A DNA stretch of 64,000 nt from an uncultured Omnitrophica bacterium. GTDB lineage: Bacteria > Omnitrophota > Gorgyraeia > JACQQV01. The stretch is from the NCBI GenBank assembly GCA_947085655.1, contig CAMTXH010000003.1, positions 29,850 to 93,849 on the forward strand, written 5' to 3'. Under the pieces are notes generated by a model. The model ran no database searches, was not told the DNA's origin, and worked only from the letters and a program-made list of their open reading frames with translations. Shown here one piece after another: positions 3,020 to 64,000 of this stretch. Each line of letters starts with the position of its first letter. Positions within the stretch are counted from its first letter, which is position 1. Position numbers and translations under genes: made by a program.

Positions 3020-3039
3020 CCTTGCCTCGTTGCTCCAAA

Positions 3040-3071
3040 CCCCCTACCGGTTTGCCGGTAGGGGGTTTTTG
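3040..3071 (+). terminator. rho-independent terminator after second groES
   Basis: CCCCCTACCGG-tttg-CCGGTAGGGGG is followed by TTTTTGTTT. Confidence 0.85.
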
Positions 3072-6937: not shown

Positions 6938-9900
6938 TGCATCACGAAAATTTCGTCCACCTTCACCTCCACACCCAGTACAGTCTTCTCGACGGCGCCT
7001 GCTTCATCCCCCATCTCATGGAGATGGCCCGGAACTACAAGATGCCGGCGATCGCCATGACCGACCACGGGAATCTTTTCGGAACCATCGAGTTTTACGA
7101 CGAGGCGTTAAAGCACGGCATAAAGCCGATTATCGGGTGCGAGATGTACGTGGCGCCCACAGACCGCCGTGAGCGGGTGATGGACCCTCTGCACGGTGCC
7201 TCTTCGCATTTGATTCTTCTTGCGAAGAACGAAGCAGGGTATCGAAACCTGATGAAACTGGTGAGTGCCGGCTACTTCGAAGGGTTTTATTACAAGCCGA
7301 GGATTGATAAGACGCTCCTCAGAGAACATCGGGAAGGTCTGATCGGACTCTCGAGCTGCCTGAAGGGAGAGGTTCCCCGCTGTCTCACCGTCGGTCAATT
7401 AAACCAGGCAAAGGAAGCGGCCGCCTTCTTCAAAGAACTTTTTGAAGCGGGGGATTTCTATCTGGAACTTCAGGACCACCGTCTACCCGAACAGAAGAAG
7501 GTCAACGAGGGACTCATCCGGATCGGCCGGGAAGTCGGCATCCCCCTCTGTGCGACCAACGACGTTCATTACCTCCATCAAAAGGATGCAAAGGCGCACG
7601 ATGCCCTGATTTGCATCCAGACTCAGACCACCCTGGACGACCCCCACCGGATGCGTTACGTCACGCCTGAATTTTATTTCAAAAATCCGCAGGAGATGAC
7701 GGCCATTTTCAAAGACCTTTCCGAGGCGATCCGGAGCACCATTGAAATTGCCGAAAAATGCAACCTGGAACTCGACTTCAGCAAGACCCACCTCCCTTCC
7801 TATCCTCTGCCGGAAGGCAAGAGCGCGGAGGAGTACCTTCGCGATCTCTGTCACGAAGGTCTCCGGAGGCGCTACCCCAGGGTGGATGACCGGCTGACCG
7901 AGCGGCTGGAACAGGAACTGGCGGTGATTAAAAAGGCCGGTTTTGTCAGCTATTTCCTCATCACCTGGGATTTTGTCCATTACGCCAAGGCAAAGGGGAT
8001 ACCGGTCGGCCCCGGCCGGGGATCGGTTGCAGGGAGTCTCGTGAGTTACGTCCTCGGCATCACCGATATTGATCCATTGCGGTACGATTTAATTTTTGAA
8101 CGTTTCCTCAACCCGGACCGGGTCTCCCTCCCCGATATCGACATCGATTTTTGTTATGAACGGCGCGGGGAGGTGATTGATTATGTGACCCGCAAATACG
8201 GCGCGCAGAATGTGGCGCAAATCATCACTTTCGGAACGATGCAGGCACGGGCGGTGGTGCGGGATGTGGGACGCGTCATGAATATACCGTATCCCGAAGT
8301 GGACCGGATTGCGAAGCTGATTCCGTACGAACTGAACATGACGCTGAAGGATGCCGTTGAGCAGGAGCCGGAGCTGAAAAAACTGAAGGAGTCCAATCCC
8401 AAGGTTACGGAACTGTTGGAAACCTCTCTCTCACTCGAAGGATTGACCCGTCATGCCTCCACCCACGCCGCCGGCGTCGTCATCAGCGACCGGCCTCTCA
8501 CCGACTACATGCCCCTTTTCAAGTCGAACGAAGAACAGACCACGACCGGTTATGACATGAAGTCCCTCGAGAAAATCGGCCTTTTGAAAATCGATTTTTT
8601 GGGTCTCAGAACCCTGACGGTGATTGAGGAAACCCTCCAGCAGATCTGGGAGCAGAAAGTGGATTTGGATCTGAACCGCATCCCGCTCAATGATTCGAAA
8701 ACCTACCAGCTCCTTTCGAATGCGGAGACGTTCGGGGTCTTTCAGCTTGAGAGCTCCGGCATGCGGGACCTCCTGAAAAAGATGGGGCCGACCTGCTTTG
8801 AGGATATTGTCGCGCTCCTCGCCCTTTTCCGTCCCGGTCCGATCGGAAGCGGCATGGTGGATGATTTCATCTCCCGAAAACACAATCCCACCTTGATCCG
8901 TTACGATGACCCGCGTCTGGAACCGATTTTGAAGGAAACGTACGGCATCATCGTCTATCAGGAGCAGGTGATGCGGATTGCCAGCACGCTCGGCGGGCTG
9001 ACCTTAAGTCAGGCCGATTCCCTCCGGCGGGCGATGGCCAAGAAGGAACCGGAAATCATGGAACGGATGCGGCGGGACTTTATCGAAGGGGCGCTGGAGA
9101 GCGGAACCCCCAAGCGGGTCGCGGAGAAAGTCTTCAATTTAATCGAGTATTTTTCGGGGTACGGTTTTAATAAAAGCCATTCCGCCGCCTATGCGATGAT
9201 TTCCTACCGGACGGCGTATCTGAAGGGGCACTATCCGGTCGAATTCATGACCGCCCTTCTCACCAGTGAAAAGGACAACACGGATAAAATCGTTCAATAC
9301 ACGAACGAGGCGGCCCGGATGGGAATCCGGATTCTCCCTCCCTCGATCAATGAGAGTGAATCGAAATTCAAAAAGACCGGTGAGCGGGACATCCGCTTCG
9401 GTCTATCCGCCGTTAAAAATGTAGGACTGGGCGCAATTGAGTCCATTCTCCAGAGCCGGAAACAGGACGGCCCCTTCAAATCGCTCTTTAATTTGTGTGA
9501 GCGGGTAGAACTTCGCCTCGTGAACCGGAAGGTCCTGGAAAGTCTGATCAAATGCGGCGCGATGGATTCCTTCGGACTCTATCGATCACAACTTTTGGCG
9601 ATGCTGGACCAGGCCCTTGGCTCCGCCTCCAAACGGCAGCGGGATCGCCAGGGAGGTCAGCTCTCTTTCTTTGATGTCCTCGGAGAGGAGAAATTCGGGG
9701 AGGGAAGTTCTCTTCCGCCCCCTTTGAAAGAGTGGCCGGAACATCAACTTCTCGCTTATGAACGGGAACTTCTCGGATTTTATGTCACGGGTCACCCGCT
9801 TGCCCGGTTTGAGAAGCTCCTCCGGACTTACGGCACCTCCCTCGGTGCCCTGGGTCTTCATCCAGATGGTGAGTTCCTGTGTGTGGGCGGTATTTTGGGA

Positions 9901-10422
9901 AAAGTGCGGCTGACCACCACAAAGCGGCTTGGGGAGAAGATGGCCATCCTGACACTCGAAGATCTTGATGGGTCTGCAGAGGTGATCGTCTTCCCAAGCG
10001 TTTTTGCAAAGACCTATCATGCCATTCGGGAGAACGCCATCGTTTTTATCAAGGGGCGCGTCAGTCTCAAGGAGGAGTCCCCCAAGGTGATTGCGGAAGA
10101 TGTTGTCTTTGCGGAGGAAGCGAAAAAAAGATTGACCGGCAGTATCGTCGTTCATCTTCAGACCGCCGCTTTGGAGGAGAGCCGGGTGAAAGCCCTGCGT
10201 GAAATTCTGGCCCGTCATCCGGGAGAAATTCCGCTCTATCTGAACTTTAAGTCACCGAATCAACAAGAGTTAAGAGTTTTGGTCAATCGCTCCCTCTTTG
10301 TAGGGCCCACCGAGGCATTTGAGGCGGATGTGGAACGTCTTGTTGGAGAAGGAGTTATCGAATACCTCCCCCAAATCGTGCCACAAAAACATCTTGACAA
10401 CAAAAAGGCGGCTATGGTATAG
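6937..10422 (+). CDS. dnaE: DNA polymerase III subunit alpha
   Basis: The protein starts MHHENFVHLHLHTQYSLLDGA, a PHP domain N-terminus. The ATG overlaps the upstream stop (TAATG). The in-frame upstream extension to 6868 is unlikely to be real. Confidence 0.95.
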   Translation: MHHENFVHLHLHTQYSLLDGACFIPHLMEMARNYKMPAIAMTDHGNLFGTIEFYDEALKHGIKPIIGCEMYVAPTDRRERVMDPLHGASSHLILLAKNEAGYRNLMKLVSAGYFEGFYYKPRIDKTLLREHREGLIGLSSCLKGEVPRCLTVGQLNQAKEAAAFFKELFEAGDFYLELQDHRLPEQKKVNEGLIRIGREVGIPLCATNDVHYLHQKDAKAHDALICIQTQTTLDDPHRMRYVTPEFYFKNPQEMTAIFKDLSEAIRSTIEIAEKCNLELDFSKTHLPSYPLPEGKSAEEYLRDLCHEGLRRRYPRVDDRLTERLEQELAVIKKAGFVSYFLITWDFVHYAKAKGIPVGPGRGSVAGSLVSYVLGITDIDPLRYDLIFERFLNPDRVSLPDIDIDFCYERRGEVIDYVTRKYGAQNVAQIITFGTMQARAVVRDVGRVMNIPYPEVDRIAKLIPYELNMTLKDAVEQEPELKKLKESNPKVTELLETSLSLEGLTRHASTHAAGVVISDRPLTDYMPLFKSNEEQTTTGYDMKSLEKIGLLKIDFLGLRTLTVIEETLQQIWEQKVDLDLNRIPLNDSKTYQLLSNAETFGVFQLESSGMRDLLKKMGPTCFEDIVALLALFRPGPIGSGMVDDFISRKHNPTLIRYDDPRLEPILKETYGIIVYQEQVMRIASTLGGLTLSQADSLRRAMAKKEPEIMERMRRDFIEGALESGTPKRVAEKVFNLIEYFSGYGFNKSHSAAYAMISYRTAYLKGHYPVEFMTALLTSEKDNTDKIVQYTNEAARMGIRILPPSINESESKFKKTGERDIRFGLSAVKNVGLGAIESILQSRKQDGPFKSLFNLCERVELRLVNRKVLESLIKCGAMDSFGLYRSQLLAMLDQALGSASKRQRDRQGGQLSFFDVLGEEKFGEGSSLPPPLKEWPEHQLLAYERELLGFYVTGHPLARFEKLLRTYGTSLGALGLHPDGEFLCVGGILGKVRLTTTKRLGEKMAILTLEDLDGSAEVIVFPSVFAKTYHAIRENAIVFIKGRVSLKEESPKVIAEDVVFAEEAKKRLTGSIVVHLQTAALEESRVKALREILARHPGEIPLYLNFKSPNQQELRVLVNRSLFVGPTEAFEADVERLVGEGVIEYLPQIVPQKHLDNKKAAMV

Positions 10423-10452
10423 TAATCTAATAATGATAAGGGGTTAGGTAAA

Positions 10453-10498
10453 GACTCCTCCTTTTCGTATGCTCCCCGGAGGTCGATTTTTTTTCGTT
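10453..10498 (+). terminator. putative intrinsic terminator after dnaE
   Basis: An imperfect stem GACtcCTCC...GGAGGTC is followed by a T8 run. Confidence 0.4.
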
Positions 10499-10578
10499 CT
10501 CTATATTACCTATTTTATTTTAATGAAAGGGTTTGAGTAGATTGTCGGCATCCGGGTGCATATAAAGGAGGAATAAGG

Positions 10579-10851
10579 ATGACAAAGAAGGACATCGTCT
10601 TGAAGATTGCCGAAGAGACCGGGATCAAACAGGTCGATGTGAAACGCGTAGTTCAGCGGGCACTCGACCATATTGTCCAGAGTCTCCAGGCGGGTGAGAC
10701 CGTGGAACTGAGAAATTTCGGCATTTTTAAGGTCAAATCCAGAAGAGGTCGGACAGGACGGAATCCACGGACCGGCGAGAAAGTGCCCGTACCGCCCAAG
10801 AAGGTGGCGGTCTTTAAACCGGGTCTGATCATGAAAAAAGAGGTCCTCTAA
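10579..10851 (+). CDS. hup: HU family DNA-binding protein
   Basis: The 90-aa product reads MTKKDIV...RNPRTGE and has an AAGGAGG RBS. Confidence 0.9.
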   Translation: MTKKDIVLKIAEETGIKQVDVKRVVQRALDHIVQSLQAGETVELRNFGIFKVKSRRGRTGRNPRTGEKVPVPPKKVAVFKPGLIMKKEVL

Positions 10852-10927
10852 TCCAACTCTTGTCGTTGAACATCCTGCCGTTTTGACACACTTGTGGCCG
10901 CCGGCCACCCTCATTTGAAAGACATTC

Positions 10928-12202
10928 ATGCAGATTAAAGCCCTGCGGGGAACAGACGATCTCTTTTCGCCCGCTGTTGAAAAATGGCGGAACGTAGAGA
11001 CCGCTGCCCGAGCCGTTTTCAAAAGTTACGCCTTCAAAGAAATCCAGACCCCTTTGCTGGAAGAAACGCTCCTGTTTCAACGCGCCATCGGTGAGACGAC
11101 CGACATTGTTGAAAAACAGATGTACACCTTTCGGGACCGGGGGGAGCGGCTTTTGTCTCTCCGTCCGGAAGGGACTGCACCCGTGATTCGGGCCTACCTG
11201 GAGCGACACCTCGACCAAAATCCCGGTCTTTCGCGCCTTTTTTATATCGGACCGATGTTCCGGGCCGAGCGGCCGCAGGCGGGACGGCTCCGTCAATTTC
11301 ATCAGATCGGGGCGGAGGTGATCGGTTCCTATAGCCCCTATGTGGATGCGGAAGGACTTTCCCTCGTCACCCGTTTTTTTGAACGGTTGGGGCTTTCCGG
11401 AGGCCATCTCCATTTGAATTCCCTCGGATGCGAGAAGGACAAAAAGAAAGTTTCCGCCTTTTTAAAGGAAGCCCTTTCAAAAAAACGGTCCTCTCTATGC
11501 GCCGAATGCCGAAAACGGTTTGAGCGGAACGTCTTCCGGATCCTGGATTGTAAGGAAAAAGGATGCCGTGCGATTGTCCAGTCTCTTGCGCCGATTTTGG
11601 ATCAACTCTGTCAGGAATGTCTCACCCATTTTAAGGAACTCCAAAGCGCATTGAAACGGGCGGGAATCGGTTTCGTCCTTTCGCCGCACCTGGTGCGCGG
11701 GCTCGACTATTACACCCGGACCGCCTTTGAGATCACCCATCCCGCACTCGGGGCACAGGATGCCCTTTGTGCGGGGGGACGGTATGACGGACTGGTGGAA
11801 GCACTCGGCGGAAAACCGACCGGTGCTTTCGGTTTTTCCATCGGGTTCGAACGGCTCCTCATGACACTGGATGCCCAGAAAATTAATGCGGGCGTTCCGG
11901 AGTCCTTGGATGTCTTCATCGTCACGGTGGGGGAGGGAGGTTTTGAGACAGCGTTTGAGATTTCGGAACAACTCCGAAAAGAGGAAATTACCTCCCTTCT
12001 TGATTATGAAGGAAAATCGCTCAAAGCACAGATGCGGCTTGCCAATCATCTGAAAGCGGCGTGGGTGATCTTAGTCGGCGAAGAGGAGCTGAAGGAAAAA
12101 TCGGTCACCCTGAAGGAGATGGAGGGGGGTAAAGAGGAGCGGATTCCCCGTGAAAGAATCGTGAAGGAACTGCAGAACCGCCTGAAAAAGGTAAAGAGCT
12201 GA
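10928..12202 (+). CDS. hisS: histidine--tRNA ligase
   Basis: The 424-aa product has class II aaRS motifs typical of HisRS. Confidence 0.95.
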   Translation: MQIKALRGTDDLFSPAVEKWRNVETAARAVFKSYAFKEIQTPLLEETLLFQRAIGETTDIVEKQMYTFRDRGERLLSLRPEGTAPVIRAYLERHLDQNPGLSRLFYIGPMFRAERPQAGRLRQFHQIGAEVIGSYSPYVDAEGLSLVTRFFERLGLSGGHLHLNSLGCEKDKKKVSAFLKEALSKKRSSLCAECRKRFERNVFRILDCKEKGCRAIVQSLAPILDQLCQECLTHFKELQSALKRAGIGFVLSPHLVRGLDYYTRTAFEITHPALGAQDALCAGGRYDGLVEALGGKPTGAFGFSIGFERLLMTLDAQKINAGVPESLDVFIVTVGEGGFETAFEISEQLRKEEITSLLDYEGKSLKAQMRLANHLKAAWVILVGEEELKEKSVTLKEMEGGKEERIPRERIVKELQNRLKKVKS

Positions 12203-14010: not shown

Positions 14011-14097
14011 GGACGTTTTCAGAAAGTGTCCTCCTGGCCTGCCGGCCAGGGCAGGCCAGCGTGAGGGAGATACAAGGGACACTTTCGAAAACGTCCC
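14009..14097 (+). other. long imperfect hairpin (20-bp stem, 1-nt bulge) carrying conserved motif ACTTTCGAAAACGTCCC; enclosed nested palindrome TGGCCTGCC-GGCCAGG-GCAGGCCA
   Basis: GGACGTTTTCAGAAAGTGTCC (14011-14031) pairs with GGACACTTTCGAAAACGTCC (14077-14096). It lies between the aspS stop and a lipoprotein gene. Confidence 0.5.
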
Positions 14098-14115
14098 AAG
14101 AAAAGGAGCACGACA

Positions 14116-14772
14116 ATGGGCCGTTTCGAAAAGAGCATGTTCAAAATTTTGATTTGGGTGGCGATTCTCTTTGTCTTTTCCGGATGTCTCCGGAAGGTGC
14201 AGGTGGTGAGGCGCGAACGGGTGGACCAAACGCTTGCAGGGAACCGGGGTGTCCTTCTGGGACCTGTTCCGACGACTCCCTCGACGGCGTCAAAGACCCG
14301 GGAGTATATTGAATGGGATTTTGAAGTCCCCACCTATGAAGTCCAGGTTCAGGTGCCTGAATGGCGCCGCGAGTCGGTTGATAAGGAAATCTGGGGAAAC
14401 CGAGGATATCTGTCCGGCAGTTCGGCAAGAAGCGCCCAGGCACCGCGGGTCAGTGTACCTCCTTCAACCCCCAGGCCTCTTCCTCCGAAAACCCCTGTCG
14501 TCTCCCCTGTTCCGGAGACGCCGCCGAAGCCGTTTTGGGAAAAACTTCCCTCAAGGCAGCCCAAACCAGCCGATTTTACCTCTTATACCGTCCAGCGCGG
14601 CGACACATTGGGCAAGATTTCAACCGACGTCTACGGAACCTCGAGAGGATGGCAGCAGATTTACGAGGCGAATCGCGATCTGTTGAGCGACCCGAACCGC
14701 CTGAAGCCGGGACAGACCCTCCGGATTCCGCCGTGGGAAAAGACAAGAAAACCCTCCTCCGGGATCAAATAA
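14116..14772 (+). CDS. proline-rich lipoprotein with C-terminal LysM domain
   Basis: It has a signal peptide and lipobox VFSGC. A Pro-rich linker precedes the LysM domain YTVQRGDTLGKIS...GQTLRIP. An AAGGAG RBS is present. Confidence 0.75.
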   Translation: MGRFEKSMFKILIWVAILFVFSGCLRKVQVVRRERVDQTLAGNRGVLLGPVPTTPSTASKTREYIEWDFEVPTYEVQVQVPEWRRESVDKEIWGNRGYLSGSSARSAQAPRVSVPPSTPRPLPPKTPVVSPVPETPPKPFWEKLPSRQPKPADFTSYTVQRGDTLGKISTDVYGTSRGWQQIYEANRDLLSDPNRLKPGQTLRIPPWEKTRKPSSGIK

Positions 14773-20591: not shown

Positions 20592-20629
20592 CCGGCCTGT
20601 CGGCCAGGACAGACTTTCGAAAACGTCCC
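20592..20629 (+). other. second copy of intergenic motif GGCCTGYCGGCCAGGRCAG + ACTTTCGAAAACGTCCC
   Basis: It shares a 17-nt identity with 14081-14097. It lies between the glyS stop and the ppdK start. Confidence 0.45.
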
Positions 20630-20641
20630 CAGAAAGGATAC

Positions 20642-23353
20642 ATGCCAAAATACGTTTACTTTTTCGGCGGAGGGAAGGCGGACGGGAATGCCGCAATGAA
20701 GGAGCTTTTAGGCGGGAAGGGTGCGAATCTGGCCGAAATGACCAACGCGGGCGTTCCGGTTCCCCCCGGTTTTACCATCACCACCGAGGTCTGCAAACTC
20801 TTTTACCGGAATCAAAAGAGGGTTCCGTCCGCCATCGCCGATGAGATTGACAAGAATCTCCAGCGGTTGGAGAGGACGATGAAGGCGCGGCTGGGGGATC
20901 CGGTGAATCCTTTGCTCCTTTCCGTCCGCTCCGGCGCAAAATTTTCGATGCCGGGTATGATGGACACGATTCTGAATCTCGGGCTCAACGACAGGACGGT
21001 GGAGGGACTCATCCGGAAGACAAAAAATGAACGGTTTTCCCTCGATTGTTACCGACGCTTCATCCAGATGTTCGGGAACGTTGTCCTCGGAATAGAGAAA
21101 TATGTCTTTGAAGAGATTATTCTGGAGAGGAAAAAACTCCGCCGCATTACCCAGGACACCGAACTGGATACCACCGACCTGAAGGAACTGATCCGGCAAT
21201 TCAAGGAAACGGTCCGCTATGATACCCAGGAAGAGCTGCCGCAGGATGCCCGGCGACAGCTGGAGATGGCGCGGGATGCGGTCTTTCTTTCCTGGAACAA
21301 CGAGCGGGCCATTTTTTACCGGAAACAGTACCGCATTCCGGATGACTTGGGGACGGCGGTGAATGTCCAGACGATGGTCTTCGGAAACATGGGAAAGACC
21401 TCGGGGACCGGCGTCGGGTTTACCCGGAATCCCTCCACCGGTGAAAAGGAGTTCTTCGGAGAGTATCTCACTAATGCGCAGGGCGAGGATGTGGTGGCGG
21501 GGGTCCGGAATCCGAAGCCTATCGGTGAATTGAAGAAAGAGATGCCTTCCGTTTACAAGGAACTGGCGGGAATTACCCGGCGTCTTGAACGGAACTACCG
21601 GGACGTTCAGGATTTCGAGTTTACGATCCAGGAAGGGAAACTTTACATGCTTCAGACCCGGACCGGGAAGCGGACCGGCCCGGCCGCCGTCAAGATTGCG
21701 GTTGATATGGTTCAGGAAAAATTGATTGCCCCCAAGGAGGCGGTGTTGCGGGTGGAGCCGGACCAATTGGACCAGTTGCTTCATCCCCGGATTGACCCGA
21801 AAGTGGAGGTTAAGGTCATTGCCAGGGGTCTGAATGCCTCGCCCGGTGCTGCGGTCGGAAAGGCCTTTTTTGATGCGACGGAGGCGGCCGAGGCGGCCAA
21901 AAAGGGGGAGCGGGTGGTGTTGATCCGAAAGGAGACCTCGCCGGACGATATCCACGGCATTGCCGCGGCACAGGGGATATTGACCGCGACCGGCGGAGCC
22001 ACCTCGCATGCGGTGGTGGTCTCCCGGCAGATGGGCAAGCCCTGCGTGGCCGGATGTTCGGCCATTGCCATCGATGAAGAAAAAGGACTTTTCGAAGTCA
22101 ACGGTCTCCAGGTCAAAAAGGGGGAGATGATTGCGATTGACGGGACAACCGGCCGCGTGATGGTGGGGGATGTCCCGACCATCAAGCCGGATATGCGGGA
22201 TCTGGAAAAAGGCGATTACGGAAAACTCCTCCGCTGGGCAGACCAATACCGGATGCTCGGCGTCCGCGCCAATGCGGATACGCCCCAGGATGCGACCATC
22301 GCCCGGCAAAACGGCGCGGAGGGAATCGGCCTCTGCCGGACAGAGCATATGTTTTTTGCGACGGACCGGCTTCCGATCGTGCAGGAGATGATTCTCGCCT
22401 CCACCCTCGAAGACCGGAAGCGCGTCCTCGACAAACTCGCGCCGATGCAAAAACAGGATTTCAAGGAAATTTTCCGGGTCATGAAGGGACATCCGGTGAC
22501 CATCCGTCTTCTGGACCCTCCTCTTCATGAATTTCTCCCGAATCGGGACGAACTGGTCGAGGAAATTCAGGAACTGGAGCTTTCAAAGAAAGAGCCCGAG
22601 CTTCTCCAGCTAAAGAAAAATCTTTTGGCCCGGATCGCCCAGCTCCATGAGTTTAATCCGATGCTGGGTCTCCGGGGTTGCCGCCTCGGGATTACGATGC
22701 CGGAGATCACGCAGATGCAGGCAAGGGCGATTCTGGAGGCGGCCTGCGAACTGGTCCGGGAGAAGATTCGCGTCTATCCGGAGATCATGATTCCGCTGGT
22801 GGGGACGGTGGAGGAATTCCGTCATCAAAAACGGGTCATCCTGGAAACGGCTGCGGAGGTTTTCAAGGTGCAAGGTCATCCGGTCCGCTTTTTAATCGGA
22901 ACGATGATAGAAATTCCGCGTGCCGCCCTCACCGCCGGAGAAATTGCCAAAGAAGCGGACTTTTTCAGTTTCGGAACCAACGATCTCACCCAAATGACCT
23001 TCGGCTTTTCCCGGGATGATACCGGGAAGTTTCTCCCGAAGTATCTGGACGAAAAGATTCTTAATTTCGATCCCTTTGTCACCATTGACCAGGAGGGCCT
23101 CGGACAACTTATCCGGATGGGGACGGAGAACGGGCGGAAGAGCCGGCCGGAGCTGAAGGTCGGAATCTGCGGTGAGCATGGCGGAGAGCCCCAGAGCGTC
23201 ATCTTCTGTCATAAAGTGGGGCTCAACTATGTCAGTTGCTCCCCCTATCGGGTTCCCATTGCCCGTCTTGCTGCGGCAAGAGCCGCCTTGGAAGAAGAAT
23301 TTCCATCCCCGGGGCGCAAGACTCAGAAAAAAACGCGTTCAAAGCGGAAGTAA
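20642..23353 (+). CDS. ppdK: pyruvate, phosphate dikinase
   Basis: The product is about 903 aa and starts [11 protein letters not shown]. It has PEP-utilising and PPDK domains and a Lys-rich C-terminal tail. Confidence 0.95.
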
Positions 23354-25001: not shown

Positions 25002-25825
25002 GTCTCATTGTGATCACCAAAAACGAAGAGGCGAATCTCCGCGAATGCCTGGAGAGCGCGGAGGGACTTCCGGATGAAATTGTCATCGTGGACGATGAGA
25101 GCACGGACCGGACCCGGGAGATTGCACGGGAGTTTACCGATAAAATTTACAGCCGGAAGATGGACCTGGAAGGACGCCACCGGAACTGGGCCGCCTCCCG
25201 TGCCACCCACGACTGGGTGCTCTGGATGGATGCGGATGAACGGATGACGCCGGAACTCAAAGAAGAAATCCGCCAAACCCTCTCGCAGAGCAATGCCAAC
25301 ATCGCCGCCTACTGGATTCCCCGGAAAAACTATCTCGGAAAGAGGTGGCTGAAACATGGCGGCTGGTACGCGGCGCACATCAAACTTTACGACCGGCGGC
25401 TGACCCGTTGGCGGGAAGTGGTGCATGATGTGGTGCACCCAGGAATTGACATCGCGGAGGGGTATAGCGGGAAGGAGTTGAAAAAGCCGCTCATTCATTA
25501 CAATTTCAAGAACATAGAGGATTTTATCCAGAAGGTAAACCGGCACTCTACCTTTGAGGCGGTGAAGTGGCATCTACAGGGGAAGAGGATCACCCTTTGG
25601 CACGGGCTTTGGAAGGCCTTTGACCGTTTTTGGAAGCGTTACGTTTATAAAATGGGTTTCCTGGACGGTCTTGAGGGATTCGTTGCCGCTTTCTTGAGCG
25701 GGTTTTATCAGTTCGCCGCCTATTGCAAGTTCCGGGAAATTCGGAAAGAGGGGATTTATCTGGACCGTGTGGCTCCATCTCCTGACACAAAAGAACAACC
25801 CATTCAGCCCTCCGTGCCCCTGTAG
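24980..25825 (+). CDS. glycosyltransferase family 2
   Basis: The product contains LSLIVITKNEE...IVIVDDESTD...DADE, a GT-A DxD fold. It overlaps the upstream gene by 22 nt. Confidence 0.85.
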   Translation: MAERKKLSLIVITKNEEANLRECLESAEGLPDEIVIVDDESTDRTREIAREFTDKIYSRKMDLEGRHRNWAASRATHDWVLWMDADERMTPELKEEIRQTLSQSNANIAAYWIPRKNYLGKRWLKHGGWYAAHIKLYDRRLTRWREVVHDVVHPGIDIAEGYSGKELKKPLIHYNFKNIEDFIQKVNRHSTFEAVKWHLQGKRITLWHGLWKAFDRFWKRYVYKMGFLDGLEGFVAAFLSGFYQFAAYCKFREIRKEGIYLDRVAPSPDTKEQPIQPSVPL

Positions 25826-25892
25826 CTCAGATGGATAGAGCAGAGGTTTCCTAAACCTCGTGTCGGGAGTTCGAATCTTCCCAGGGGCACCA
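25816..25892 (+). tRNA. tRNA-Arg (anticodon CCU)
   Basis: The cloverleaf is read by eye. The acceptor stem is GCCCCTG/CAGGGGC, followed by A and CCA. The anticodon loop TTCCTAA gives anticodon CCT. T-arm GTTCGAATC. The 5' end overlaps the GT2 stop codon. Confidence 0.88.
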
Positions 25893-29293: not shown

Positions 29294-29341
29294 GGCAAGT
29301 TCCTAACGGCCTGCTTCGGCAGGTCGCCTACAAAGGTTTAA

Positions 29342-29380
29342 CCCCCCTGGGTCTACAAGACCCAGGGGGGTATTGTTTTA
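29342..29380 (+). terminator. rho-independent terminator
   Basis: CCCCCCTGGGTCT-aca-AGACCCAGGGGGG is followed by TATTGTTTT. Confidence 0.85.
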
Positions 29381-29401
29381 GTCCCTCTTGAAAGTCCGGG
29401 A

Positions 29402-29518
29402 GTTGCCTCCGCTTGCCGCTCGCTTCGATGACGCATCTTTGCTCGCTGTGGAGCAAATCCGCCGCGACACTGGATCGCGGTTTGGGATGCGTCGGATTTT
29501 CTACAGTCGCTCCGGCAA
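29402..29518 (+). repeat. 117-nt conserved structured element, copy 1 (candidate ncRNA or MITE-like element) enclosed by 13-bp inverted flanks GAAAGTCCGGGAG / CTCCCGGACTTTC
   Basis: It is 115/117 identical to 62863-62979. It contains the internal hairpins TTTGCTC-gctgtg-GAGCAAA and CCGCGA-cactgga-TCGCGG. Confidence 0.7.
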
Positions 29519-29542
29519 ACTCCCGGACTTTCTTTGGTGAGA

Positions 29543-45185: not shown

Positions 45186-45199
45186 TTTTCCCGCATACC

Positions 45200-45370
45200 G
45201 ATAAGGGCAAACCGCGGGAGACCGCGGGACATCCGCGAGTGAGGCATTCATCCTCCGGATTCCCCGCCAGAGCGGCGGGGAGCAAAGCCATGGGTCCTTA
45301 AAACGGTGAAGGGTGTCAGAACACCTAACACCACACGCCGTTTTACAGGATCGCCAGGCTGCCGAAGTAA
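45200..45370 (+). promoter_or_regulatory. structured 5' leader with c-di-GMP-I (GEMM)-like motifs
   Basis: GGGCAAACC-CCGCGG-GAGA-CCGCGG-GAC (45205-45230) mirrors the Vc2 riboswitch P2 arm GGGCAAACC-stem-GNRA-stem-GGGAC. GCAAAGCC lies at 45282-45289. Further hairpins are CCCCGCC-agag-GGCGGGG and UAAAACGG...CCGUUUUA. The spacing between the two motif blocks is longer than in the canonical aptamer. Confidence 0.3.
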
Positions 45371-45386
45371 CGAAGGAGAATGCCTC

Positions 45387-45842
45387 ATGAGAAAACGGGA
45401 AAAGGGATTTACCCTTGTCGAAGTCTTAACTACCTCTTGCATTGTCTCCCTGATTGCCCTCCTGGCGATACCCAATTTTGTCAGGGTTTGGCAGGATGTG
45501 AATGAAAGGACCGCCCAGGAAACACTCCGGACCATTCACCAGGCGATGATTTCCTACCGGGGATTCAATTTAAGTTATCCATCCGATCTTACGGAATTGG
45601 CCGATTCCCAAGGGGGCCCTTACTATCTGAATCAGAGTGTGGCAAGCGGGAAAAAATCGGGCTACCTTTATCGTCTGGATTCGAGCGACAAATATACGTT
45701 CCGCGTTACCGCGATTCCAGAAAATCCCGGTGTGAGCGGAAAACGGTCCTTTGTCGTGACGGAAGCAGGCCTTATCGAGACAAACTCCAGTACTGTCACC
45801 ATTGTTCCGAACGCCACAGAACCTGGCCTGGACGGCAGGTAA
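45387..45842 (+). CDS. type IV pilin / pseudopilin (prepilin-type N-terminal cleavage/methylation domain)
   Basis: MRKREKGFTLVEVLTTSCIVSLIALLAIP carries the class III signal G/FTLVE. A GAAGGAG RBS is present. Confidence 0.8.
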   Translation: MRKREKGFTLVEVLTTSCIVSLIALLAIPNFVRVWQDVNERTAQETLRTIHQAMISYRGFNLSYPSDLTELADSQGGPYYLNQSVASGKKSGYLYRLDSSDKYTFRVTAIPENPGVSGKRSFVVTEAGLIETNSSTVTIVPNATEPGLDGR

Positions 45843-58338: not shown

Positions 58339-58866
58339 GTGGTTGCCTGTGCCATCATCCTTCGGGACCCGCATTTCCGGGTTCGGATTGACGATTCAAA
58401 ACGGCTGACCGAATCCCAGCGATGCCGGGCATTTGAAGTCATCGTTCAAAAGGCCTGGGTCGGGATCGGCAAGGTCGGGCCGGGTCTGATCGACCGCATC
58501 AACATCCTGAGGGCGAGCGCCCTTGCCATGGCGCAGGCCATCCGGAATATCGGTTTTGATCCGGATTTTCTTTTGATTGACGGAAATGTGCCGGTGCCGA
58601 CTTTGCATGCGCGCGAATGTCTGGTGCACGGGGAAAGCCGTTCCCTTTCCATTGCGTGCGCCTCGATCGTCGCAAAGGTGACGCGGGACCGGCTGATGTC
58701 CGAGTATGACAGGACATTTCCGGAATACGGTTTTTGCCGGCACAAAGGATACCCCACGCCGGAGCACCTGGCGGCCCTGGAAAAATACGGTCCTTCGCCC
58801 ATTCACCGGAAGAGTTTCAGACCGGTTTCACAGTTGCATCCCGGGTTCTATGCAGACATCGATTGA
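58339..58866 (+). CDS. rnhB: ribonuclease HII (canonical-start ORF; true N-terminus probably upstream)
   Basis: The RNase HII body starts from a GTG at 58339. The conserved catalytic GLDEAGRGPLAGPVV is encoded in frame at 58301-58338, but no ATG/GTG/TTG lies between the in-frame stop at 58162-58164 and 58339. Confidence 0.75.
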   Translation: MVACAIILRDPHFRVRIDDSKRLTESQRCRAFEVIVQKAWVGIGKVGPGLIDRINILRASALAMAQAIRNIGFDPDFLLIDGNVPVPTLHARECLVHGESRSLSIACASIVAKVTRDRLMSEYDRTFPEYGFCRHKGYPTPEHLAALEKYGPSPIHRKSFRPVSQLHPGFYADID

Positions 58867-60505
58867 AATTGCCCAAAAAAGCCATCCCCTTCAAATTACG
58901 GAGATTGCCAAATCCCTCAGTCTCAGACTGGAAGAAATTTCCACCCAAGGCCCCCACAAGGCCAAGGTCTCCCTGGATGTCCTGACCCGCCTTAAAAGCC
59001 GTCCGAACGGAAAATTGATTGTGGTCACCGCCATCACCCCAACACCGCAGGGCGAGGGAAAGACCTGCACCTCCATTGCCCTGACCCAGGCCCTCGGCAA
59101 ACTCGGGAAGCGGGCGATGGTCTGCATCCGTCAGCCGTCCCTTGGACCGACCTTCGGGATCAAGGGGGGAGGGACCGGCGGCGGGTATGCGCAGCTTGTT
59201 CCGATGGAAGAGATCAACCTCCATTTTACCGGCGATAACCACGCCGTGGAGTACGCCCACAACCTCCTGGCCAGCGTCATCGGAAATCATATGTTCCGGG
59301 GGAACGCTCTGAATCTTGACCCGGAGCGGGTTCTCTGGCGCCGGGTGATTGATGTGCCGGACCGGGAACTCCGGAATTTTTTCGTCGAGGTCAAAGAAAA
59401 AGGGAAGAAGGTCAAACGTCCCACCGGATTCGACATCACCGCCTCGAGTGAGGTGATGGCGATTCTGGCTTTGGCGAGTGATTTAAAGGATTTGTCGGAG
59501 CGGCTGGCGCGGATTGTCATCGGCTTCACCGATGACGGAAAGCCGGTCACCGTTTCTGACCTCAAACTGGAGGGGGCGCTCACGCTCATCCTGCGCGATG
59601 CGGCAAGACCGAATCTCGTTCAAACACTCGAGGGACAGGGGGCGTTTGTTCATGCGGGGCCCTACGCGAACGTTGCCCACGGGAATTCGAGCGTCATCGC
59701 CACCCAGATGGCGCTCAAACTGGCGAATTATGTGGTAACCGAAAGCGGTTTCGGCTCGGACTTGGGTCTTGAGAAGTTCCTGAACATCGTCTGCCGGCAG
59801 GCCTCCTTCAAGCCGGATTGCATCATTTTGGTCTGCTCGGTCAAAGCCCTCCGGATTCAGGGGGGCGAGGAAAAGGGTTCCACCGATTCTTTGAAGGGGG
59901 GACTCCTCAACCTCAAGCGGCACATCGATAACATCCAGAAATTCGGTTTCAAACCGATTGTCTGCATCAACCGGTTTCAGGAGGACAAAGAGTGGGAGAT
60001 TCAGGAGGTCGTGACGTACAGCCGTTATCTGGGAATGCCGGTTGCTGTCAGCGAGGGATATGCCAAGGGGTCGAAGGGGGCGATGGAGTTGGCGGAACGG
60101 GTGCTTGCGGCGATTCAGGAAAACGGAAGCCGTTTCCAGTTTTTGTATCCATCGGAACTTCCCCTTAACCAAAAAATAGAACGGCTTGCCAAGGAACTTT
60201 ACGGAGCCAAGTCGGTCCGGTATTCCCCCAAGGCGGAGCAGGCCCTTTCGGAACTGACAAAACTTGGATTCGGGCATCTTCCGGTGAATATGGCGAAGAC
60301 GCATCTTTCTTTTACGGATGACCCGAAGGTGAAGGGGGTACCCACCGGCTGGTCGCTCCGGGTACAGGAGCTCCGGGTCGCTGCGGGAGCCGGTTTCATC
60401 AATTGCATTGTCGGCAACATGCTCCTTCTGCCCGGGCTTCCCGAACATCCGATTGCCCAGCAAATCACGGTTGACGGCTCCGGAAAAATCAAAGGGCTCT
60501 TCTGA
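58850..60505 (+). CDS. fhs: formate--tetrahydrofolate ligase
   Basis: The product starts MQTSIEIAQ...PI.EIA. It is about 551 aa and belongs to the FTHFS family. The ORF-track start at 58706 overlaps rnhB and is rejected. Confidence 0.95.
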   Translation: MQTSIEIAQKSHPLQITEIAKSLSLRLEEISTQGPHKAKVSLDVLTRLKSRPNGKLIVVTAITPTPQGEGKTCTSIALTQALGKLGKRAMVCIRQPSLGPTFGIKGGGTGGGYAQLVPMEEINLHFTGDNHAVEYAHNLLASVIGNHMFRGNALNLDPERVLWRRVIDVPDRELRNFFVEVKEKGKKVKRPTGFDITASSEVMAILALASDLKDLSERLARIVIGFTDDGKPVTVSDLKLEGALTLILRDAARPNLVQTLEGQGAFVHAGPYANVAHGNSSVIATQMALKLANYVVTESGFGSDLGLEKFLNIVCRQASFKPDCIILVCSVKALRIQGGEEKGSTDSLKGGLLNLKRHIDNIQKFGFKPIVCINRFQEDKEWEIQEVVTYSRYLGMPVAVSEGYAKGSKGAMELAERVLAAIQENGSRFQFLYPSELPLNQKIERLAKELYGAKSVRYSPKAEQALSELTKLGFGHLPVNMAKTHLSFTDDPKVKGVPTGWSLRVQELRVAAGAGFINCIVGNMLLLPGLPEHPIAQQITVDGSGKIKGLF

Positions 60506-61110
60506 TGAAACGCTACGCCGAAAAACGGATCTCCGATTTTCTGGAAGATTTGAGTTCCCATGCCTCGGTCCCGGGCGGCGGAAGTGCGGCGGCTTTTTCC
60601 GGGGCGCTGGGTGCTTCTCTCCTCAGCATGGTCGCCCATTTTTCCGGGGCAAAGGGTTCCAGCCGGCGGCGGAAAGAGATCAAGGAGCTCCTTTTGGAAA
60701 CATACCGGATCCGCGATGAACTGGTGAAATTAGTGGATGAGGATGCGGAAAGTTACAAAGAGGTCACCCGGGCCCAGCGCTCGGCCAAACTTTTGGCGCA
60801 TCAGAAATCACGCGTGAAAATATTAAGGGAAGCCCACCGGAAGGCCACCGCAAGCAGCTTTAGTATCTGCCAGGCCTCCCACCGGGGCCTTCGGATCGGA
60901 AGACGACTCCTTCGAATCGGAAATGAGCGGCTTGAAAGCGATACCCGGGGAGCCATTTTTTTTCTCTCGGCCGGTTTCAAGGCGGCCTATTTGATGACAG
61001 AGGAGAATCTTCGCTGGATGAAGGACCCCCCGGCGGCAAAAAAGACGAAACGGATGCTTTCCTCCATCCGTTCGGAAGTTTCAAGAATTCTTAAGGCGGC
61101 TGACAAATAA
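60505..61110 (+). CDS. cyclodeaminase/cyclohydrolase family protein (FTCD_C-like; putative methenyl-THF cyclohydrolase)
   Basis: The hallmark SHASVPGGGSAAAFSGALGASLL is present. It is flanked by fhs and folD. Confidence 0.75.
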   Translation: MKRYAEKRISDFLEDLSSHASVPGGGSAAAFSGALGASLLSMVAHFSGAKGSSRRRKEIKELLLETYRIRDELVKLVDEDAESYKEVTRAQRSAKLLAHQKSRVKILREAHRKATASSFSICQASHRGLRIGRRLLRIGNERLESDTRGAIFFLSAGFKAAYLMTEENLRWMKDPPAAKKTKRMLSSIRSEVSRILKAADK

Positions 61111-61111
61111 A

Positions 61112-61981
61112 ATGAAAAAAACAGTTCTGCTAAAAGGCGGAAAGATAGCCGACCGTATCTTCGAATCGCTGAGGGAGGAGGTAGCGGTCCTGCGTCGAAA
61201 GACTGGGAAGGTTCCGACACTCGCCAATATCCGGATCGGGGAAAATTACTCCGTCGCTCTTTACGAAAAGGCCCAAAAAAGGCGTGCGGAAGCGATCGGG
61301 ATCGGTTACAGGGGGTATCATCTCGGAGCCGGAACGACCCAGACGGGGATTGAACGGCTGATTCACCGTCTCAACCGGGAGTCTGCGGTCAACGGCATTG
61401 TTTTGCAGGTGCCGCTTCCGAAACAACTGGACCCGAGAAAAACGATTTATGCGATAGACCCAAGAAAAGATATCGAAGGGATCCATCCGGTCAATCTGGG
61501 CAAGGCGATTCTCGGAAGGGAGGAATACGGCTCCTGCACCGCCATTGCCATTATGGAACTTCTCAAGTCCTATCATGTGAAACTGTACGGAAAAGAAGCG
61601 GTGATCATCGGATCGAGCGATGTGGTGGGGAAGCCGACGAGTCTGATGCTGGCCGACGCTTTCGCCACAACCACCATCTGCCATATTGCGACCACGGAAC
61701 GGGGAAATTTGAAATCCCACGTCCAGAATGCCGAAATCCTCGTGGCCGCGGCGGGAAAGCCGTATCTGGTCAAAGGGAGCTGGATCCGGAAGGGGGCAGT
61801 GGTGATTGATGTCGGGATCAATCATTATCAGGGTCGGCTCGTAGGGGATGTCGAATTTGAGACGGCCCAAAAGAGGGCCTCCTACATTACCCCGGTTCCG
61901 GGCGGCGTCGGCCCTGTCGTTCCCGCCATCCTCATGCGCAAACTCGTTGCCGTCTTCAAGGCACAACTTTCAAGGACGTAG
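61112..61981 (+). CDS. folD: bifunctional methylene-THF dehydrogenase / methenyl-THF cyclohydrolase
   Basis: The 289-aa product belongs to the FolD family. Confidence 0.95.
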   Translation: MKKTVLLKGGKIADRIFESLREEVAVLRRKTGKVPTLANIRIGENYSVALYEKAQKRRAEAIGIGYRGYHLGAGTTQTGIERLIHRLNRESAVNGIVLQVPLPKQLDPRKTIYAIDPRKDIEGIHPVNLGKAILGREEYGSCTAIAIMELLKSYHVKLYGKEAVIIGSSDVVGKPTSLMLADAFATTTICHIATTERGNLKSHVQNAEILVAAAGKPYLVKGSWIRKGAVVIDVGINHYQGRLVGDVEFETAQKRASYITPVPGGVGPVVPAILMRKLVAVFKAQLSRT

Positions 61982-61984
61982 ATA

Positions 61985-62848
61985 TTGAAGATCAGCGAAA
62001 TTCTGAAAAAGCGGAATGAAGGCGTTTCGTTTGAATATTTCCCGCCGAGGACAGAGCAAGGCAAAAAATCATTCCTTGAAACGATCGAAGCCCTGAAGGT
62101 TTACAATCCCCTTTATGTCTCTATGACCTGCGGCGCAGGGGGGTCCGGGGCCTGGGACAGAACCGAAGGCGCCGTGGACCTTCTCTTGGAAAAAACAAAA
62201 TGGGTCGTGATGCCGCATGTGACCTGCATGGGGATCCGAAGGGAAGAGGTAAAGGGTCTTTTGGACCGGTACCAAGAAAAGGGGATTGAGAATTTAATGG
62301 TTTTGCGGGGGGACCCCCCGCGGGACGGAACGCCGTTTGATCCCTCCATCCGGGAATTCCGTTATGCGGTTGACCTTGTCTCCTTTGTCAAAGAGTACGG
62401 ACATTTTTGCATGGGAGTTGCGGTCTATCCGGAAGGCCACCTGGAGACCGGCTCCCTCAAGGAGGATCTGGAACATGCGAAGGCCAAGATCGACAGGGGG
62501 GCCGACTTTGCCATCACCCAGATGTTCTTTGACAATACCTATTATTACCGGATGCTCGACCGGATGAAGAAGGAGGGGATTACGATTCCGGTTTTGCCCG
62601 GGATTTTACCTTTGGCGGATGTGGCGAAGGTGAAACAATTTGCCTCCATCTGCCGGGCCACGATTCCCAAGGAAATCGAGGAAAAGATGGAGCGGCTGAA
62701 GGCGAATCCGGCCGAAATGGAAAAAGCGGGGCTTGATTTTACCATACGGCAGTGCCGCGATCTTCTCAAAAACGGGATCCGGAGGGTGCATTTCTATACG
62801 TTGAACAAATTTCAGGTGACAAAAACGGTCCTGGATGCAATCCTTTAG
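61985..62848 (+). CDS. metF: methylenetetrahydrofolate reductase
   Basis: The 287-aa product is a MetF-family TIM barrel. It has a TTG start. Confidence 0.9.
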   Translation: MKISEILKKRNEGVSFEYFPPRTEQGKKSFLETIEALKVYNPLYVSMTCGAGGSGAWDRTEGAVDLLLEKTKWVVMPHVTCMGIRREEVKGLLDRYQEKGIENLMVLRGDPPRDGTPFDPSIREFRYAVDLVSFVKEYGHFCMGVAVYPEGHLETGSLKEDLEHAKAKIDRGADFAITQMFFDNTYYYRMLDRMKKEGITIPVLPGILPLADVAKVKQFASICRATIPKEIEEKMERLKANPAEMEKAGLDFTIRQCRDLLKNGIRRVHFYTLNKFQVTKTVLDAIL

Positions 62849-62862
62849 TGGAGGCCATCAGG

Positions 62863-62979
62863 GTTGCCTCCGCTTGCCGCTCGCTTCGATGACGCATCTT
62901 TGCTCGCTGTGGAGAAAATCCGCCGCGACACTGGATCGCGGTTTGGGATGCGTCGGATTTTCTACAGTCGCGCCGGCAA
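62863..62979 (+). repeat. 117-nt conserved structured element, copy 2, enclosed by different inverted flanks CCATCAGGG / CCCTGATGG
   Basis: It is 115/117 identical to copy 1. It lies between metF and gcvT. Confidence 0.7.
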
Positions 62980-63008
62980 TCCCTGATGACCTCCTTAAAG
63001 GACAAGCG

Positions 63009-64000
63009 ATGCAGATGAGGGAACAGCTGAAAAAAACCTCCCTTTATGAACGGCACCTCCGGCTCGGGGCAAAGATGATGCCGTTCGGCGGTTTTTCGAT
63101 GCCGATTCAGTACACCAGCATCACCGAAGAACACCTCGCGACCCGGAAAAAAGCGGGCCTTTTTGACCTCTCCCACATGGGGGAGTTCGTTTTGATGTCA
63201 ACCGGTGCTTCCGAATTTTTGTCACGGATCACCACCGGGGACCCTGAAAAAATGCCGGAGGGGACGACGTTATATACCCTCTTTTGTAACCCGCAGGGCG
63301 GGGTGGTGGATGATCTGATTGTTTACCGGCTGGAAAAGGAGCGTTTTATGCTGGTGGTCAATGCCGCAAACATCCAGAAGGATTTTAAATGGGTCGAGGA
63401 GAATCTCGGGCGGGATGGGGTCCGTTTTGAAAATATCAGCGACACCATTGCCCTGATCGCCCTTCAGGGGCCGATGGCCGAGACGATTTTCCGGGACAGT
63501 CCTTACCATGATGGAGCGAACCTGAAACGGAACCAGTTTCTCGAGTTTGAGACGGAAGATGCAAAAGTGCTTGTTTCACGGACCGGATACACTGGAGAGG
63601 ACGGCTTCGAACTTTATACCTCTTCGCGATTTGCCCCGAAGGTCTGGGATGCGCTTATGGAAAAGGGTAAACGCTTTGGTCTCCTGCCGGTTGGTTTGGG
63701 AGCAAGGGATACCCTCCGGCTTGAGGCGCGTCTTCCTTTGTACGGTCATGAATTGGATGAGGACATAACCCCTTTCGAAGCAGGAATCGGTTGGACAGTC
63801 GCCCTTGATAAGGAAGATTTTATCGGAAAAAAAGCACTCCTCCAGCAGAAGGAAAGGGGAGTTCGAAGGGTCCTGGCCGGTTTTGAAATGCTGGAACAGG
63901 GGATTCCGCGGCAGGGATGTGCCATTTGGAAGGAAAAAATCATCGGCGCGGTCACCAGCGGGACTTTTTCCCCTTTTTTTAAGAAAAATATCGGACTCGG
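63009..64000 (+). CDS. gcvT: glycine cleavage system aminomethyltransferase T, 3'-truncated at window edge
   Basis: The product starts MQMREQLKKTSLYERHLRLGAKMMPFGGFSMPIQY and belongs to the GcvT family. The frame is open to the end of the window and is not listed in the ORF track. Confidence 0.9.
   Translation, partial: MQMREQLKKTSLYERHLRLGAKMMPFGGFSMPIQYTSITEEHLATRKKAGLFDLSHMGEFVLMSTGASEFLSRITTGDPEKMPEGTTLYTLFCNPQGGVVDDLIVYRLEKERFMLVVNAANIQKDFKWVEENLGRDGVRFENISDTIALIALQGPMAETIFRDSPYHDGANLKRNQFLEFETEDAKVLVSRTGYTGEDGFELYTSSRFAPKVWDALMEKGKRFGLLPVGLGARDTLRLEARLPLYGHELDEDITPFEAGIGWTVALDKEDFIGKKALLQQKERGVRRVLAGFEMLEQGIPRQGCAIWKEKIIGAVTSGTFSPFFKKNIGL

Follow-up and report, generated by a model that had tools for sequence, protein, structure and literature searches.

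The window analyzed here, a stretch of 64,000 nt from a Candidatus Omnitrophota genome, contains the co-directional genes metF (61985-62848, PF02219) and gcvT (PF01571), separated by a spacer that holds a structured, non-coding repeat. The gcvT start codon was placed at the ATG at 63009, from which the protein begins MQM..EQLK, as in a relative, while public gene calls in the same organism extend gcvT (429 aa; 10851-12140 of locus L001, which carries gcvT and gcvH) and trpA (305 aa; 10001-10918 of locus L005, which carries trpB and trpA) upstream through the element, producing spurious N-terminal extensions such as MTHLCSLWRKSAATLDRGLGCVGFSTVAPA... The two genes belong to a contiguous cluster, fhs-fchA-folD-metF-gcvT-gcvH-gcvPA-gcvPB-lplA, spanning 58706-64000 of the window and L001, which is the gene set of the reductive glycine / folate C1 route and is conserved in a relative whose MetF is 64% identical.

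A repeat search of the window reported 62863-62979 and 29402-29518 as a 117-nt direct repeat in the same orientation at 98% identity, and pairwise alignment showed 115 of 117 matching positions, with the two differences being GAGCAAA/GAGAAAA and CGCTCC/CGCGCC. A 61-nt probe allowing up to 3 mismatches found only these two sites in the window, and no site in 100 shuffles. The copy between metF and gcvT is closed by its own inverted repeat, GGAGGCCATCAGGG / CCCTGATGACCTCC, which forms 14 bp with one C·A mismatch and is extended by an outer helix, whereas the arms of copy 1, GAAAGTCCGGGAG / CTCCCGGACTTTC, are unrelated in sequence and have a weaker outer layer. The initial annotation had described a second copy of a 117-nt element with these same two substitutions and a different but complementary closing stem, and this observation was confirmed, although the stem is longer than had been stated. 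The features of the locus, all given on the plus strand, are as follows.

62841-62847 (+), outer half-helix TCCTTTA, overlapping the last metF codons and the first two bases (TA) of the stop codon TAG (62846-62848), complementary to 62996-63002
62850-62863 (+), 5' arm of the closing hairpin (P1), GGAGGCCATCAGGG, specific to this locus
62864-62868 (+), TTGCC, the 5' strand of the invariant inner closing helix, in which UGCC pairs with GGCA; the first base covaries with the base after GGCA (T-A here, C-G in copy 3)
62869-62884 (+), junction box 1, TCCGCTTGCCGCTCGC, unpaired; with the preceding TGCC it forms the 20-mer that retrieved the family
62885-62901 (+), variable hairpin P2, TTCGATGACGCATCTTT (GATG/CATC), in which GACGCATC (62891-62898) is complementary to 62947-62954
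62902-62909 (+), junction box 2, GCTCGCTG, identical in 21 of 23 distinct cores
62910-62922 (+), 5' strand of the long hairpin P3, TGGAGAAAATCCG, A-rich, with a conserved purine·A mismatch at the third position
62923-62941 (+), apical hairpin of P3, CCGCGA-CACTGGA-TCGCGG; on the minus strand this hairpin followed by CGGATTTTCT scores as terminator-like
62947-62954 (+), GATGCGTC in the 3' internal loop of P3, an 8-nt complement of the P2 loop and 3' strand, giving either a long-range pairing or an alternative fold
62954-62966 (+), 3' strand of P3, CGGATTTTCTACA, T-rich
62967-62974 (+), junction box 3, GTCGCGCC, for which the family consensus is GTCGCTCC; the G here is the only difference from the same locus in the MAG
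62975-62980 (+), GGCAA, the 3' strand of the inner closing helix, followed by one bulged base (T, 62980); most family members also have one extra base at this point
62981-62994 (+), 3' arm of P1, CCCTGATGACCTCC
62996-63002 (+), outer half-helix TAAAGGA, containing the likely gcvT ribosome-binding site AAGGA (inferred), 6 nt before ATG 63009
29390-29532 (+), copy 1 of the same element, with arms GAAAGTCCGGGAG / CTCCCGGACTTTC around the core at 29404-29517, between the alginate-export-type (outer-membrane) channel gene and a convergent CDP-alcohol phosphatidyltransferase (pgsA-like) gene

To determine whether the element occurs elsewhere in the same organism, we first examined contigs encoding the identical MetF protein. 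A contig of MAG GCA_964374045.1 carries the same element with one base difference, out of 3 differences in 12,016 aligned bases. Two Logan contigs carrying metF and two carrying the gene upstream of copy 1 all stop exactly 30 nt into the shared sequence, as expected for a repeat in a k=31 assembly graph. Another point where assemblies break is at or next to the tRNA gene at 25816-25889 of the window, as the MAG contig and a Logan contig both begin at about window position 25883, inside its 3' end. When the six-frame translation of the element was used as a protein query, a single protein was returned, a TrpA called with an N-terminal extension that runs through the element, and its contig revealed a third copy between trpB and trpA. 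The arms of this copy are again different, AGCCGTCTGCCGGGG / CCCCGGCATCCGGCT, and the outermost core pair is changed on both sides, to CTGCC...GGCAG instead of TTGCC...GGCAA. Three copies therefore occur in about 95 kb of this genome, with cores 98-99% identical and arms 29-59% identical. A concatenated protein query intended to extend along the MAG contigs returned nothing.

The trp operon that carries copy 3 also appears to contain a small inserted island, as three extra genes (an ORF6N-domain gene, an Rv0078B-like gene, and one of unknown function) sit between trpC and trpB (L005 7365-8755), with a 39-nt segment duplicated at 85% identity in front of the Rv0078B-like gene, the second of the three, and in front of trpB (7938-7976 and 8770-8808), and two perfect 12-13 bp palindromes at 7493-7519 and 7883-7907. 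In the window, a 36-nt repeat, ACTTTCGAAAACGTCCC..AAGAAAAGGAG (81% identical), at 14081-14116 and 20613-20648 lies just upstream of a LysM-protein gene and just inside the 5' end of the longest ppdK ORF, and may be a shared operator or leader. A c-di-GMP-I riboswitch match at 45196-45366 scored 38.4 bits against a gathering score of 35 and overlaps the start of a 178-aa ORF with no Pfam domain (45306-45842). Two Cpn10 genes flank groEL in the arrangement groES-groEL-groES (574-981, 998-2623, and 2732-3019), and share a 130-nt repeat at 71% identity (701-830 and 2742-2871).

We next asked whether the element is present at the equivalent site in relatives. MetF homologues identify the lineage as Candidatus Omnitrophota, with the nearest relative only 67% identical. 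One such relative (64% identical MetF) has the same gene order, fhs-fchA-folD-metF-gcvT-gcvH-gcvP, but its metF-gcvT spacer is 16 nt, with no element and no hairpin. The initial annotation had named absence from relatives with identical gene order as part of what would count against a conserved regulatory role. The MetF C-terminus (..LDAIL) is conserved, so the 5' flank up to the stop codon is native sequence. Flanking proteins were also looked up in other samples to find an empty site, but all of the contigs recovered carry the element or break in it.

To test if the element belongs to a broader family, we scanned public sequence collections with short patterns from the core. An internal 22-mer had no hit in metagenome contigs, consistent with that region being lineage-specific, and a scan of GTDB genome contigs with an internal 20-mer (GATGCGTCGGATTTTCTACA), also a lineage-specific probe, gave only a chance hit inside a Sphingobacterium coding sequence. 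In contrast, the first 20 bases of the core, TGCCTCCGCTTGCCGCTCGC, hit 31 JGI metagenome contigs, each referred to below by an L number. Of these, 23 hold complete elements with boxes 2 and 3 and complementary arms, and L033 is a further full-length member with a variant box 3. L023 and L040 are chance coding matches in an SPFH-type protein, and L004 is likewise a chance match. A few hits are truncated copies or are cut by contig ends: of the solo or truncated members (L025 2431-2465, L038 4315-4343, L018/L032, and L027), some keep the 5' arm and the first 12-20 bases of box 1 and then continue into unrelated sequence, while L027 lacks box 3 and the 3' arm, and these may be deletions, rearrangements, or assembly joins at the repeat. 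Of 28 hits on whole contigs, 17 lie within 300 nt of a contig end, against 7.3 expected.

All complete elements share one plan: a locus-specific 5' arm (11-45 nt); a pyrimidine, then UGCC; box 1, UCCGCUUGCCGCUCGC; the short variable hairpin P2; box 2, GCUCGCUG; the long variable hairpin P3, with an A-rich 5' strand and a U-rich 3' strand, a conserved purine·A mismatch near its base, and an internal loop on the 3' side; box 3, (A)GUCGCUCC, then GGCA and a purine; usually one extra base; and a 3' arm complementary to the 5' arm. The three invariant boxes are C/U-rich. Only box 1 was selected for in the search, and boxes 2 and 3 are conserved independently of that choice. Core lengths range from 108 to 157 nt. 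The flanking genes are ordinary housekeeping genes, including argS, rpsA, mfd, hypE, nadC, and uvrB, and the hosts are not close to the window organism; for example, a ManC orthologue is 37% identical.

No RNA or repeat catalogue that we searched contains the family. There was no Rfam 15 match at E<=10 on either strand of 62780-63060, including to glycine, THF, and ZTP riboswitches, small ribozymes, and HEARO/omega RNA, and no match overlapped the element in 18 related loci at E<=1. BLAST searches of plasmids and phages gave no match, and scans of IMG/VR with four patterns gave no hits. Literature searches by sequence strings, by accession, and by keywords for loop-targeting MITEs or Omnitrophota repeats found nothing relevant. 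A small ORF inside the element was also considered but was rejected, as both differences between copies change the amino acid, core lengths are not multiples of three, and the reading frames of the element have no Pfam hit.

To examine the predicted structure, we first used RNAalifold on a raw MAFFT alignment, which gave a poor structure because the variable hairpins were misaligned. We therefore built a covariance model (R1) from a hand-specified structure, which scored 25 full-length members (3 here and 22 in metagenome contigs) at 109-141 bits and the 3'-truncated copy L027 at 77 bits, and realigned them. On that alignment, 88.3% of cells form standard pairs, compared to 66.0% after shuffling (0 of 500 shuffles reached the observed value) and 39-51% when partners were slid by 1-3 columns. 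Changes on both sides occur in 15 of 19 P1 pairs and 11 of 12 P3 pairs. Because the alignment was fitted to the model, it leans towards that structure and these counts should be interpreted with this in mind, although the gap to the slid controls is large. A further complement of 5-8 nt links the P2 loop and 3' strand to the 3' internal loop of P3 and covaries, changing sequence between subfamilies, with GACGCATC/GATGCGTC here and CGCGCCAT/ATGGCGCG or CAAACGCG/CGCGTTTG elsewhere, although it is weak in one subfamily. An H-type pseudoknot of the two stems, as first drawn, was rejected because the linker between them would be 0 nt, and was replaced by P2, P3, and a loop/internal-loop pairing or alternative fold. 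The core is thus a three-way junction with long, invariant, unpaired junction strands and a long-range pairing or alternative fold.

We then asked what kind of constraint keeps the helices paired. G·U pairs (26) are no more frequent than A·C pairs (30) among 860 cells, unlike in known structured RNAs, and in the raw arm alignments A·C was the commoner of the two. Paralogues with cores 97-98% identical differ in their arms by substitutions and even by an insertion, and these changes are mirrored in the other arm, as in L022 against L026; one compensated indel, ACTCTGTGG/CCACAGAGT against ACTTTTGTGG/CCACAAAAGT, separates paralogues whose cores are 98% identical. In two separate lineages, this genome and the L022/L026/L028 group, cores are 97-99% identical while arms are 29-65% identical. 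These three results point away from base-by-base selection on an RNA and suggest that pairing is maintained at the DNA level, since complementarity that is perfect, symmetric between strands, and restored after indels is what copying one arm from the other would give. Fold-back synthesis and quasipalindrome template switching (PMC7202029) are two such processes, and REPIN hairpins are a documented precedent for compensated arms in mobile DNA (PMC3116915).

With respect to orientation, the element is in the sense direction in all 8 cases with co-directional genes on both sides, and in nearly all one-sided cases. This bias is stronger than the usual correlation between gene direction and replication direction, so a transcript-level constraint is likely, although the two explanations cannot be separated in the window, where the plus strand has positive GC skew throughout and carries 48 of 55 ORFs. 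No conserved promoter or plus-strand terminator accompanies this copy: its P1 helix is followed by TTAAAGGA rather than a U-tract, and a terminator scan found no plus-strand site at the element, only the minus-strand terminator-like site inside P3. Copy 1, on the other hand, has a T-rich tail. The window genes are all housekeeping, and no transposase, reverse transcriptase, integrase, or Y1 nuclease gene was found in the window or the fetched loci.

We compared the element with known systems in turn. Like classical MITEs, it is short, non-coding, and multi-copy, but its terminal inverted repeats are not conserved between the three copies, which share only TGCC/GGCA, and no direct repeat lies outside the arms or outside the core. 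Correia elements (CREE) of Neisseria and similar structured MITEs (ERIC, BOX, RUP) are also about 100-150 nt with an inverted-repeat-plus-core layout, sit in intergenic and intercistronic positions, and are co-transcribed with neighbouring genes as hairpin RNA that can be bound or cut by RNase III (PMC2649163). Correia elements have sequence-conserved 26-bp terminal inverted repeats and a TA target duplication, whereas here the terminal repeats differ at every locus in this genome and no target duplication is visible; the degree of cross-lineage conservation of the unpaired boxes has no counterpart known to us. REPINs and REP sequences mobilized by RAYT (TnpA-REP) transposases are likewise short, non-coding, multi-copy intergenic elements that fold into a hairpin as a single strand, with common compensatory changes on its two sides (PMC3116915), and are non-autonomous, with the presumed enzyme encoded elsewhere. 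In REPINs the two inverted REP arms are conserved and recognized and the middle is variable, while here the arms vary and a 114-nt core at the tip is conserved; no REP-like conserved palindrome was seen, and no RAYT gene or Y1 transposase was found among the genes of the window or the fetched loci, which represent only part of the genome.

Integron attC sites and IS200/IS605 ends, which are recombination substrates folded as single-stranded DNA, also place function in a folded single strand, with structure conserved with little G·T wobble, strand-specific orientation, and no coding capacity. However, attC conserves the base of the stem (R''/R' boxes RYYYAAC/GTTRRRY) and varies the tip, and here the stem bases are locus-specific, lack these boxes, and it is the tip that is conserved. 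IS200/IS605 elements insert next to a fixed tetra- or pentanucleotide, while the left flanks here end in GGGAG, CAGGG, and CGGGG plus T or C, and P2 and P3 are unlike each other rather than forming two similar subterminal hairpins. Flanking inverted repeats are present as in a retron msr-msd, but the neighbours are metF/gcvT, trpB/trpA, and a channel gene/pgsA-like gene, and no RT domain occurs in any fetched locus. Intervening sequences of 23S rRNA are extra structured segments of about 100-150 nt at the tip of a helix, excised or tolerated because the helix closes beneath them, but they lie in rRNA genes, are not built on a conserved three-way-junction core, and are not dispersed in operon spacers.

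Of the functions proposed in the initial annotation (a 3'-UTR-derived sRNA, an attenuator for gcvT, or an inserted miniature element), only the last fits the evidence, so that its interpretation was supported in part; made from the window alone, it could not see that the element belongs to a large, conserved, and structured family. We consider a non-autonomous, interspersed DNA repeat shaped like a long hairpin, at about 62841-63002, to be the best reading, with moderate confidence. In this view, the roughly 114-nt core folds as a single strand into a three-way junction (UGCC/GGCA closing helix, P2, A/T-rich P3, and the pairing between the P2 loop and a P3 internal loop), and the unpaired strands UCCGCUUGCCGCUCGC, GCUCGCUG, and GUCGCUCC are most likely the surface recognized by a factor encoded elsewhere, which copies the core to new sites. 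The complementarity of the arms would be written by DNA synthesis using one arm as template for the other, either by fold-back priming from the terminal TGCC/GGCA complement or by quasipalindrome template switching, rather than selected base by base in RNA. Once inserted in an operon, the element would be transcribed passively, with a closing helix of 19 bp or more folding the insert out of the message and bringing the upstream stop codon next to the downstream ribosome-binding site; only sense insertions are seen within operons, presumably because only those are tolerated. Our analysis establishes the copy number, the family and its architecture, the covariation, the symmetric wobble statistics, the orientation bias, and the absence from a relative and from catalogues, whereas mobility itself, the single-stranded DNA intermediate, the trans-acting factor, the way the arms are made, and the insulating effect in mRNA are inferred from sequence alone. 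No transposition event, empty site in a close strain, target-site duplication, or partner enzyme was found. Further, the 41 invariant junction bases are conserved across hosts whose orthologous proteins are only about 37% identical, which is more than most selfish repeats show and suits a functional RNA or a catalytic core, and the near-absolute sense orientation is more easily explained by an RNA-level role than by replication-coupled insertion.

The main rival, which we regard as possible but less likely, is a functional RNA module acting in cis within operon transcripts, as a processing or stability signal, a self-cleaving or protein-binding three-way-junction RNA, or a device for translational coupling, that has been duplicated to many intergenic sites, with the long P1 helix as part of the functional RNA. 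Invariant junction strands combined with covarying helices and a covarying loop/internal-loop pairing are the signature of riboswitch and ribozyme cores, the outer helix of this copy pairs the end of metF with the gcvT ribosome-binding site, and in copies 2 and 3 the 3' arm ends exactly 14 nt before the downstream start codon. Weighing against it are the lack of G·U enrichment, the compensated arm indels, the inconsistent genetic context, the absence of Rfam matches, the existence of truncated copies, and near-identical cores with unrelated arms in one genome, which mean recent copying rather than old conserved genes. A gcvT-specific attenuator or riboswitch is not supported and we consider it, or an sRNA derived from the metF 3' UTR, very unlikely. 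Although the position between metF and gcvT fits, glycine-cleavage operons are classic riboswitch targets, and the region is predicted to be highly structured (z = -3.7 on the plus strand), the same core occurs in unrelated contexts, it is absent from a relative with the same operon, it matches no glycine, THF, or ZTP riboswitch, and there is no promoter-like site and no terminator-like site following it on the plus strand; a 3'-UTR-derived sRNA cannot be excluded on sequence evidence alone.

The origin of the arms bears on a further alternative, in which the core is a mobile element that inserts into the loops (of about 3 nt) of pre-existing local hairpins such as terminators or REP-like palindromes. 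Removing the sequence from TGCC to GGCA leaves 13-14 bp stems with 3-nt loops (T|AA, T|AT, and C|GT), the window holds native, empty 14-bp perfect hairpins with 3-4 nt loops at 3037-3068 and 29341-29371, and the arms of copy 1 carry the A-tract and T-tract of a terminator. IS1397, which inserts into REP loops, provides a precedent (cited in PMC3116915). Other inserts in this genome also sit at hairpin tips. In the gcvT-gcvH spacer, about 130 nt beyond the window end (L001 12148-12340), a 121-nt AT-rich insert bounded by 36-nt inverted repeats (81% complementary) encodes the first half of a GIY-YIG nuclease domain (PF01541, E=2e-8, profile positions 1-41 of 78), and is a truncated nuclease gene at a hairpin tip. 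In the hisB-hisH spacer (L005 760-864), a 105-nt complex hairpin has a perfect 13-bp outer stem, AGGGACGTTTCTA/TAGAAACGTCCCT, around a G+C-rich interior, and its stem resembles the GGGACACTTTCGAAAACGTCCC palindrome at window 14076-14097. However, about 95 kb of this genome shows no empty G+C-rich long hairpin inside an operon, although copies 2 and 3 are both inside operons and lack T-tracts, the relative's 16-nt spacer has no hairpin, and no empty version of any arm pair was found in the fetched contigs. In other lineages the arms are related between loci and even have conserved outer layers, which a purely locally generated arm does not predict and which fits arms that travel with the element or a REP-like family of target hairpins. 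We rank arms written or renewed by templated synthesis first and pre-existing hairpins second, the loop-targeting reading being doubtful.

Bacterial interspersed repeats are usually defined by conserved ends and a dispensable middle, while this family is the reverse, with a conserved, elaborately folded middle and ends that, in this genome, differ at every site but always pair. It is possible, though tentative, that the family is a new class of structured nucleic-acid element, under one of two readings. The roughly 41 invariant unpaired bases, held on a three-way junction with a long-range pairing, could form a catalytic or protein- or ligand-binding RNA core, which would be a new ribozyme or a processing module that spreads through operons; alternatively, they could mark a new single-strand transposition system that builds an inverted duplication (hairpin arms) at each insertion instead of a direct target duplication. 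If the arms are written at insertion, that is a transposition chemistry that has not been described for bacteria, and if the core is an RNA, it is a widespread structured RNA missing from Rfam that sits inside essential operons (folate/glycine, tryptophan). In either case, the three boxes and the covariance model give a concrete, searchable signature for a repeat that breaks metagenome assemblies in poorly known lineages such as Omnitrophota.
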